DNA of 45,391 nucleotides from a virus (taxonomy: Duplodnaviria; Heunggongvirae; Uroviricota; Caudoviricetes), in the IMG/VR virus record IMGVR_UViG_2778261297_000007, positions 1 to 45,391 of that record; one strand, 5' to 3'. Shown piece by piece: positions 16,691 to 17,000 of this stretch (the stretch's first letter is position 1; every line of letters starts with the position of its first letter). The position numbers and the translations under genes are program-made. The notes beneath the pieces are model-generated. The model was not told where the DNA came from. It worked only from the letters and a program-made list of their open reading frames with translations, and searched no databases.

Positions 16691-16767
16691 CGGCCCTTTA
16701 GCTCAGTTGGTTAGAGCGTGCGACTCATAATCGCCCGGTCGCTGGTTCAAGTCCAGCAAGGGCCACC
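16691..16767 (+). tRNA. tRNA-Ile2 (CAU, ileX-like; may score as tRNA-Met)
   Basis: Cloverleaf with anticodon loop CTCATAA; close to the E. coli ileX sequence as recalled; ends in CCA. Confidence 0.7.
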
Positions 16768-16769
16768 AG

Positions 16770-16844
16770 ACCGCCACTAGCTCATCGGGAAGAGCGGCAA
16801 CCCAGGTGTTGTGGTACGGGGTTCGAGGCTCCGGTGGCGGACCA
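16770..16844 (+). tRNA. tRNA-like sequence with anomalous anticodon arm (possible pseudo-tRNA or unusual tRNA)
   Basis: Good 7-bp acceptor stem, D arm and T arm (TTCGAGG loop), CCA end; by hand-folding the anticodon loop is 6 nt (CCAGGT), so the anticodon is unresolved. Confidence 0.4.
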
Positions 16845-16846
16845 CT

Positions 16847-16922
16847 GCCGACTTAGCTCAGTAGGTAGAGCAACTGACTTGTAATCAGTAGGTCACCAGT
16901 TCGATTCCGGTAGTCGGCACCA
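16847..16922 (+). tRNA. tRNA-Thr (UGU)
   Basis: Cloverleaf with anticodon loop CTTGTAA; acceptor GCCGA.../...TCGGCACCA resembles thrU. Confidence 0.65.
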
Positions 16923-16925
16923 TAT

Positions 16926-17000
16926 GCGGGCATCGTATAATGGCTATTACCTCAGCCTTCCAAGCTGATGATGCGGGTTCGATTCCCGCTGCCCGCTCCA
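16926..17000 (+). tRNA. tRNA-Gly (UCC), glyT-like
   Basis: Cloverleaf with anticodon loop CTTCCAA; sequence appears identical to E. coli glyT as recalled. Confidence 0.75.

Follow-up and report, generated by a model that had tools for sequence, protein, structure and literature searches.

A conserved tRNA-shaped gene of enterobacterial prophages whose short anticodon loop predicts a non-decoding RNA

A 45,391-nucleotide (nt) stretch of viral DNA (Caudoviricetes; IMG/VR record IMGVR_UViG_2778261297_000007, positions 1 to 45,391), hereafter the window, carries four plus-strand genes of transfer RNA (tRNA) type at 16692-17000, which according to ARAGORN are separated by spacers of 2-3 nt. The original prediction, made from the letters alone, of four tightly spaced, phage-borne tRNA-like genes is borne out by the program, the cluster lying within a prophage at ssrA. 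Three of the genes are ordinary: tRNA-Ile2 (CAU, ileX/ileZ type; 16692-16768), tRNA-Thr (UGU; 16847-16922) and tRNA-Gly (UCC; 16926-17000), each with an encoded CCA, and on all three, as originally proposed, ARAGORN and the Rfam tRNA model RF00005 agree (69.2, 73.8 and 64.9 bits, respectively). ARAGORN labels the first of them Met/Ile2(CAT), and the Prokaryotic Genome Annotation Pipeline (PGAP) annotates this CAT gene as tRNA-Ile in the identical DNA of Escherichia coli MS 115-1.

The second gene, which we call X (74 nt; 16771-16844, plus strand), is the subject of this report. ARAGORN returns it as ‘tRNA-???’, with a 2-nt ‘anticodon (ag)’. Read from the sequence, X comprises a perfect 7-base-pair (bp) acceptor stem (CCGCCAC/GTGGCGG) followed by U8 and A9, a D arm with the stem GCTC/GAGC and an 8-nt loop containing GG, a 5-bp anticodon stem (GCAAC at 16797-16801 and GTTGT at 16808-16812), a 4-nt variable region, a T arm with the stem CGGGG/CTCCG and the loop TTCGAGG, a discriminator A at 16841, and an encoded CCA at 16842-16844. 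The anticodon loop has only 6 nt (CCAGGT, or CCAGGU in RNA; 16802-16807). The cloverleaf is calculated at -27.8 kcal/mol, as against -30.0 kcal/mol for the minimum free energy structure. X thus has the features that define a canonical tRNA body (7-bp acceptor stem, D arm with G18G19, TTCRA T loop, 3' CCA) but lacks the 7-nt loop, with U33 and a purine at position 37, that presents a three-base anticodon. The hand fold behind the original prediction was right as to the canonical arms and the 6-nt loop, and as to the 3' end of the gene, while its start (16770) was one base off.

A normal 7-nt loop with a high score, which had been named as the sign of a faulty hand fold, was given by no standard tool, and the identity of the gene, originally left open, is assigned neither by ARAGORN nor by RF00005, which gave no match at E<=10 to X in a 401-nt context or alone (gathering threshold, 29 bits). 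When X alone was searched against Rfam, the sole similarity was to the mascRNA model (RF01684), at 10.4 bits against a gathering threshold of 42.5; in context, the YrlA model (RF02553) scored 15.9 bits against 69. The identical 74-nt sequence is present in five complete E. coli genomes, including MS 115-1, where PGAP annotates nothing at this position, as well as in many viral and metagenome contigs, which excludes a sequencing error. Alleles with a 6-nt loop, that of the window included, can refold only to loops of 6 or 8 nt, and X cannot present a normal anticodon.

Relatives of X were collected by fetching loci with the 5' 16-mer shared by genes that occupy the same slot, and by structured scans of viral contigs, species-representative genomes and metagenomes, the last two scans being anchored on the D and T arms only, with the anticodon arm left free. 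The D/T-arm-anchored scans gave 122 loci with 28 anticodon-arm variants. Apart from one GTTGC arm and one irregular arm, the anticodon stem is (A/G)CAAC/GTTGT throughout, and the loop is 5 nt (8 sequences) or 6 nt (16 sequences) long in 122 of 122 loci, never 7, for a total of 24 loop sequences. The hosts span about 10 enterobacterial genera (Escherichia, Enterobacter, Buttiauxella, Dryocola, Citrobacter, Pluralibacter, Cedecea, Yokenella, Pseudescherichia and Rosenbergiella), and X belongs to a conserved, widespread, unannotated gene family of enterobacterial prophages. No cultured phage with a short-loop allele was found in the GenBank phage collection. The Yersinia phages YeP1-3 (MK733259-61, about 36.3-36.6 kilobases (kb)) carry an X-like gene annotated as ‘tRNA-OTHER’; in these phages and in locus L116, the X-like gene shares the acceptor, D and T arms of X and has the stem GCGAC/GUUGU closing a loop of 7 nt (CUUUGUA); it may represent a form between the decoding and the short-loop ones.

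Alleles with a 5-nt loop are forced by ARAGORN into Phe-AAA, Leu-UAA, Ser-UGA or ‘Stop-UUA’ by breaking the C31-G39 pair. We rejected these calls as artefacts, as the loops obtained in this way show U37 and irregularities at positions 33 and 34. Since tRNA finders either drop the X family or mislabel it (nothing, ‘tRNA-OTHER’, or a false Phe-AAA, Leu-UAA or ‘Stop’), censuses of phage tRNAs miss it.

In related lambdoid prophages and phages, whose clusters are about 89% identical to that of the window, the slot of X holds a normal 77-nt tRNA-Lys(UUU) that scores 44.4 bits as a tRNA. Four types of occupant can be distinguished in all: Lys(UUU), with the loop CCUUUAA; Arg(UCU), with the loop CUUCUAA; a 66-nt deletion relic; and the large short-loop group represented by X. 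The 66-nt form is an allele of Lys type, present in 15 loci (L036, L044, L045, L073 and others), in which the whole anticodon arm is gone and the T loop is disturbed; it is a real decay product of the slot, and as such a contrast to X. The Lys(UUU) paralog (positions 3088-3164 in both L002 and L003; 44 identical copies) has C33 in place of U33, a residue that is near-universal in tRNAs and adjoins the cut site of PrrC-type nucleases. The 3' strand of its anticodon stem, GUUGA, is unlike the segment of E. coli tRNA-Lys cleaved by PARIS AriB (PMC12409363), and this paralog may give temperate phages a Lys tRNA that resists nucleases.

Across the loci of the X family, the 68-nt body, anticodon stem included, is nearly invariant, with polymorphism at non-ascertainment positions limited to positions 17, 27, 44, 51, 62 and 73. 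Among loci fetched only by the 5' 16-mer, pairwise diversity is 0.045 at the remaining 52 body positions and 0.22-0.25 in the loop; among unique alleles, the corresponding values are 0.058 and 0.32-0.38. The CCA is invariant, and the discriminator is mostly A, also U and rarely G. The 1-3-nt spacers that flank X, in contrast, are scrambled among loci, which implies a large time depth, so that the invariance of the body reflects purifying selection rather than a recent origin.

The neighbours and paralogs of X provide controls with the opposite pattern. At the same loci, tRNA-Ile2 occurs as 24 alleles with scattered changes in the body, some of them clearly decayed, while its loop, CTCATAA, is fixed in the intact alleles. 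The Arg(UCU) and Lys(UUU) paralogs likewise vary in the D loop, the variable loop and the T loop, and show compensatory changes in the anticodon stem (TCAAC/GTTGA, TCAGC/GCTGA, GCAGC/GCTGT), yet keep their own anticodon loops. X is the mirror image of Ile2 and of the decoding paralogs, in which the loop is fixed and the body variable, and strong purifying selection acts on its entire tRNA body, the anticodon-stem sequence included. Gene conversion from a functional paralog was considered as the cause of this conservation and rejected, as neither the Lys nor the Arg paralogs have the features that set X apart.

The loop, on the other hand, changes with its surroundings. When pairs of loci were binned by the identity of flanks outside the tRNA cluster, the same loop was shared by 47 of 47 pairs at >=99.5% flank identity, by 88% at 98-99.5%, by 85% at 95-98% and by 31% at 90-95%. 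Loop turnover that tracks flank divergence in this way argues for a loop that is unconstrained rather than specifically selected, with the six sites changing at about the neutral rate once recombination is allowed for. Flanks that are 97.5% identical can carry unrelated loops, and such outlier pairs are explained by recombination shuffling old alleles. Hypermutation of the loop, or diversifying selection on it, was rejected as the main explanation, as loop identity decays in step with the flanks in the pairwise analysis. The loops do have a loose frame in common, with C as the first base in 15 of 16 hexaloops, a purine in the penultimate position and mostly U as the last base.

Two further observations concern the independence of X from the genes around it. 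First, X occurs in a variety of arrangements (Met-X-Thr-Gly, 38 loci; Met-X-Thr, 18; Met-X, 11; X-Gly, 8; X-Thr, 7), and stands alone in 12 loci among those with flanks sufficient to judge. Second, it can remain perfect beside neighbours that have not: in L015, L018 and L024, Ile2 differs from the window at 10 of 77 positions, Thr at 11 of 76 and Gly at 41 of 75, against 0 of 74 for X, and in loci of Enterobacter type a perfect X is preceded by a scrambled Ile2. X is maintained independently of its neighbours. In L170, L188 and L190, scrambled Ile2 relics about 80 nt upstream of X keep both ends of the acceptor stem (GGCCC...GGGCCACCA); these relics, miscalled Arg(TCT) by ARAGORN, are a second kind of tRNA-derived element, of which only the ends are kept.

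A promoter-like site of the tRNA operon lies at 16654-16682 on the plus strand (TTGCAA, then 17 nt ending in TG as in an extended -10 element, then TATCTT), and a GC-rich stretch (cttgctcc) separates it from the first gene. A scan with a generic promoter consensus missed this site, each of whose hexamers matches at only 4 of 6 positions. In 100 of 117 loci, the motif TT(G/T)N3-N15-16-TG-TAN3T nevertheless recurs in the 200 nt that precede X, at a constant distance that is mostly about 120 nt, immediately before the first gene, and it is kept in loci in which X is alone.

We consider it likely that X encodes a functional tRNA-like RNA that does not decode. Selection on the tRNA body, and not on an anticodon, makes a tRNA mimic the most likely mode of action. 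X, Lys(UUU) and Arg(UCU), which have the acceptor sequence CCGCCAC in common and are about 85% identical, would all derive from one phage tRNA lineage; in X, the loop would have lost U33 (6-nt form) or nucleotides 32 and 33 (5-nt form), after which its three central bases would have drifted about neutrally while the acceptor stem, D arm, anticodon stem, T arm and CCA were held. Made from the conserved promoter, with or without real tRNAs, X would fold, be released by RNase P and bear CCA, all as a tRNA does; it could then tie up a protein that binds tRNAs by their body or anticodon stem, at no cost to translation, being unable to decode. The expression and processing of X, like a sponge or decoy role, are matters that we infer, and the statement taken as a whole, of a functional, transcribed, non-decoding, tRNA-shaped RNA that acts as a tRNA mimic for a tRNA-binding protein, is put forward tentatively, as somewhat less probable than its negation.

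The most plausible partner of such a mimic would be a tRNA-directed defence or toxin protein, because the slot paralogs and the neighbours of X (Lys-UUU, Thr-UGU, Gly and Ile) are species that known systems attack. Species of Thr(UGU), Gly and Ile2 type are among the targets of P2 Old (PMC12445682), of HepS (PMC13043305) and of FaRel2 (cited in PMC12409363). Defences that cleave or modify tRNA are common, as are phage counter-tRNAs, and non-productive complexes between phage tRNAs and immune effectors have been raised as a possibility (PMC12409363). Nonetheless, that X serves as a sponge for tRNA-binding defence proteins seems to us unlikely, if worth entertaining, and about equally low is the chance that it represents the first dedicated phage RNA anti-defence decoy built on a tRNA body, that is, a highly expressed mimic that soaks up an immune effector acting on the tRNA body or acceptor end. 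Candidate effectors for such a decoy would include a Toprim or HEPN nuclease, or a modifier of the CCA end (a toxin of CapRel, FaRel or MenT type). If so, lambdoid phages across Enterobacterales would be protected by it, and the shortening of the loop would be an adaptation that makes the mimic harmless to translation.

Several points weigh against this interpretation. When the open reading frames (ORFs) within ±3.5 kb of X were clustered for 128 loci, no universal protein partner emerged, and the genes most often found there are of the usual lysis and antitermination kind (lysozyme in 50 loci, Rz in 40 and Q in 31). Documented counter-defence tRNAs replace the tRNA that is cleaved, and no competitive inhibition was seen for P2 Old (PMC12445682); as the known cases act by replacement, a sponge would be without precedent. 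A near-neutral loop speaks against anticodon-specific nucleases, and narrows the possible partners to proteins that bind the body, the stem or the acceptor end. Part of the conservation of the body was built into the search patterns, although positions free of this ascertainment show the same. Finally, the shared frame of the loop and the lack of 7-nt loops rest on about two insertions or deletions, and carry little statistical weight.

Among the alternatives, the one that survives best, though we regard it as unlikely, sees in X a former tRNA that is disabled and retained only as a processing element, providing an RNase P or folding signal for its neighbours or for the downstream transcript, in the manner of mascRNA-like end marking. 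A loop that changes about neutrally fits such a role, as does the 10.4-bit similarity to the mascRNA model, and with spacers of 2-3 nt the maturation of the neighbours plausibly depends on an RNase P cut at X. Against it, X is alone in 12 loci and is intact beside decayed neighbours; RNase P needs only the helix formed by the acceptor and T arms, whereas in X the invariance extends to the D loop, to the variable region and to the precise sequence of the anticodon stem, and X shows none of the compensatory stem changes seen in the decoding paralogs.

It is a good deal less probable that X is an aminoacylated carrier or an unusual decoder, which when charged would donate its amino acid outside decoding, or would decode abnormally, in the case of 5-nt alleles by opening C31-G39, which would leave a stem of 4 bp and a loop of 7 nt, and in that of 6-nt alleles by causing frameshifts. 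The body is conserved as in a working tRNA, the CCA and a discriminator that is mostly A are kept, A20, typical of the Arg lineage, is present, and phage tRNAs with shortened anticodon stems do function (PMC12445682). That ARAGORN can be made to read the 5-nt alleles as Phe-AAA, Leu-UAA, Ser-UGA or ‘Stop-UUA’ might be counted in favour of decoding, but the 7-nt loops so obtained carry residues that are unusual in a decoder: U37 and, in many cases, A or G at position 33 and A34. Alleles of 6 nt can be refolded to 6 or 8 nt only; with the body fixed, an anticodon that varies would cause miscoding that varies too; and the discriminator is polymorphic (A, U, rarely G).

An anticodon-specific decoy under diversifying selection, in which the three variable loop bases of each allele mimic the anticodon attacked by one nuclease, is in our view slightly less credible still. 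It would account for 24 loop variants on one body, for the recurrence of the same loops in different genera, and for the shape (C)-NNN-R-U, which resembles positions 32, 34-36, 37 and 38 of a tRNA minus U33, the residue next to the PrrC-type cleavage site and the one replaced by C33 in the Lys-UUU paralog of the same slot. Yet the loop changes in pace with the flanks, with no excess at short distances; many of its triplets (AUA, ACA, AGG, UUA, AUG) are found on no host tRNA, the share being about that expected by chance from the E. coli anticodon set; and a loop of 5-6 nt may not be accepted by anticodon nucleases at all. A search for an antisense or kissing-loop target, for which ±6 kb of every locus was scanned for full-length complements of the locus's own 5-6-nt loop, or a second copy, in a context common to loci with different loops, gave no match.

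The least credible alternative, and one that we strongly disfavour, is a plain pseudogene, in which the loss of a single base would have inactivated the tRNA and set it on the way to disappearance: neither tRNAscan-based annotation nor Rfam calls it, and the slot does contain true decay products such as the 66-nt allele of 15 loci, but the diversity of the body is 5-6 times below that of the loop, X is invariant across genera in which the adjacent spacers are scrambled, it differs at 0 of 74 positions beside neighbours that differ by 13-55%, the promoter motif (100 of 117 loci) and CCA are retained, and no donor with X-specific features for gene conversion was found among the Lys and Arg paralogs. 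Of the three options raised in the original prediction, a pseudo-tRNA in the sense of a decaying relic is accordingly contradicted, by purifying selection on the body across genera and by X outlasting its neighbours, whereas a tRNA with non-standard structure and a decoy are both compatible with the data. An anti-defence or codon-supply role, which had also been suggested, is plausible for the cluster as a whole.

The closest functional parallels to a mimic of this kind are the counter-defence tRNAs, which include T5 tRNA-Lys against PARIS AriB, a phage tRNA-Tyr against retron-Eco7 PtuAB, and a phage tRNA-Thr(UGU) against P2 Old (PMC11464382, PMC12409363, PMC12445682, PMC11555353). Like these, X is phage-encoded and clustered with species that are attacked (Thr-UGU, the Lys-UUU paralog, Ile and Gly), and its changes are concentrated in the anticodon arm. 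A replacement tRNA must, however, be competent in decoding and carry the anticodon of the tRNA that is destroyed, and the known examples have a 7-nt loop with the anticodon of the target; the loop of X, 5-6 nt long and arbitrary, with 24 variants, is too short for X to replace anything. By structure, the nearest relatives of X are the Lys(UUU) and Arg(UCU) paralogs, which share with it the slot after Ile2, the acceptor CCGCCAC, about 85% identity and the encoded CCA. These have conserved 7-nt loops on variable bodies and are recognised as tRNAs (44.4 bits for Lys), whereas the features fixed in X are its own, namely a D loop of 8 nt, GCAAC/GTTGT as anticodon stem, a variable region of 4 nt and GG at the end of the T loop.

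Other RNAs resemble X in form or in principle. The mascRNA/MEN-beta RNA (RF01684) and the tRNA-like module of YrlA (RF02553) also have a cloverleaf-like body with an anticodon loop that is reduced or absent, and RNAs of this type are handled by tRNA enzymes (RNase P, the CCA-adding enzyme and modification enzymes) without decoding. X nevertheless falls far below the gathering thresholds of both models, lacks the Ro-binding helix of YrlA, and keeps a full five-pair anticodon stem and an encoded CCA; mascRNA, moreover, is eukaryotic. The non-proteinogenic tRNA-Gly of staphylococci, used in cell-wall synthesis, offers a comparison with conserved tRNA genes that are kept for a role outside ribosomal decoding; those tRNAs, however, have a normal anticodon loop and are charged by glycyl-tRNA synthetase (GlyRS), in contrast to the 5-6-nt loop of X. 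In open-access papers and preprints we found no published account of a short-loop, decoy or tRNA-like phage gene of this kind, including under the names ileZ, argN and argO.

Phage tRNA genes are now being reinterpreted as weapons against tRNA-cleaving immunity, and every case characterised so far is a working replacement tRNA. A conserved phage tRNA-like gene that is unable to decode would represent a different strategy, be it a mimic, a sponge or a role not yet considered, and X would become considerably more interesting if a role as a mimic were confirmed. The family is cheap to test, being a natural allelic series of loops on one small gene in E. coli prophages.

As to the other genes of the cluster, tRNA-Thr(UGU) and tRNA-Gly(UCC) match chromosomal genes of thrU and glyT type, respectively, at 100% identity. 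The Thr gene has near-universal matches in E. coli genomes and a 100% match to chromosomal tRNA-Thr in Salmonella records, which match the Thr-Gly segment in two pieces with tRNA-Tyr between them. These similarities suggest that both genes were captured from a host thrU-tyrU-glyT operon, with tyrU removed. Because the phage Thr copy is identical to the host gene, it should be sensitive to P2 Old. A 67-amino-acid ORF that starts inside tRNA-Gly (16940-17143, plus strand) matches PHROG 30175 (E=2e-49), a family that was probably built from spurious ORF calls across the tRNA-Gly gene.

Within the window, 27 nt from the 3' end of ssrA occur as direct repeats at 5620-5646 and at 44332-44358, the latter within the transfer-messenger RNA (tmRNA) that ARAGORN places at 44332-44694 on the minus strand, and an integrase-sized ORF is located at 5779-6951. 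Together, the repeats and this ORF delimit a lambdoid prophage of about 38.7 kb integrated at ssrA. To the left of the prophage are a second integrase and a CP4-57-like island (genes of alpA/yfjI type, by similarity to MS 115-1), suggesting tandem occupancy of the ssrA site. The tRNA cluster sits between the antiterminator Q gene (14671-15507; Pfam Antiterm) and the lysis genes (holin, 17797-18150).

The segment 12314-17820, comprising the replication, Q and tRNA module, is 99.3% identical to E. coli MS 115-1, while in the rest of the window (1-12313 and 17821-45391) the structural genes are 84-97% identical to those of MS 115-1 (NZ_CP146665.1) or unrelated to them. The window is a mosaic whose remainder is a different mosaic phage, an example of modular exchange, with the breakpoint just 3' of the tRNA/STnc100 region. 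None of the complete E. coli genomes searched for the entire window contains it all.

Just upstream of the cluster and divergent from the tRNA operon lies an ORF of 316 amino acids (15616-16566, minus strand), which has a Cys/His-rich stretch near residue 50 and matches PHROG 7003, a family of unknown function. It has no match in Pfam or PADLOC and no relative among solved structures (PDB), and a single-sequence AlphaFold model of it is unusable (predicted local distance difference test (pLDDT) score, 34). This ORF is found beside clusters of X type in 13 of 82 loci in one survey and in 18 of 128 in the ±3.5-kb ORF survey, but in 0 of 79 loci of Lys or Arg type. It looks like a moron, one that might serve in defence or anti-defence.

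Between the tRNA cluster and the holin, on the plus strand, is an STnc100-like element (17219-17411), which matches the Rfam STnc100 model over its full length at 66.5 bits (gathering score, 47). The first hairpin 3' of the cluster that resembles an intrinsic terminator, found by a terminator scan, coincides with the 3' end of this element (17381-17410, plus strand; hairpin at 17381-17400, followed by a T run). The element may be a short, promoter-proximal late RNA of phage type (pR'-tR'-like) or the end of the tRNA transcript, which could possibly terminate at this hairpin. About 200 nt 3' of the cluster are conserved in about 20 loci.

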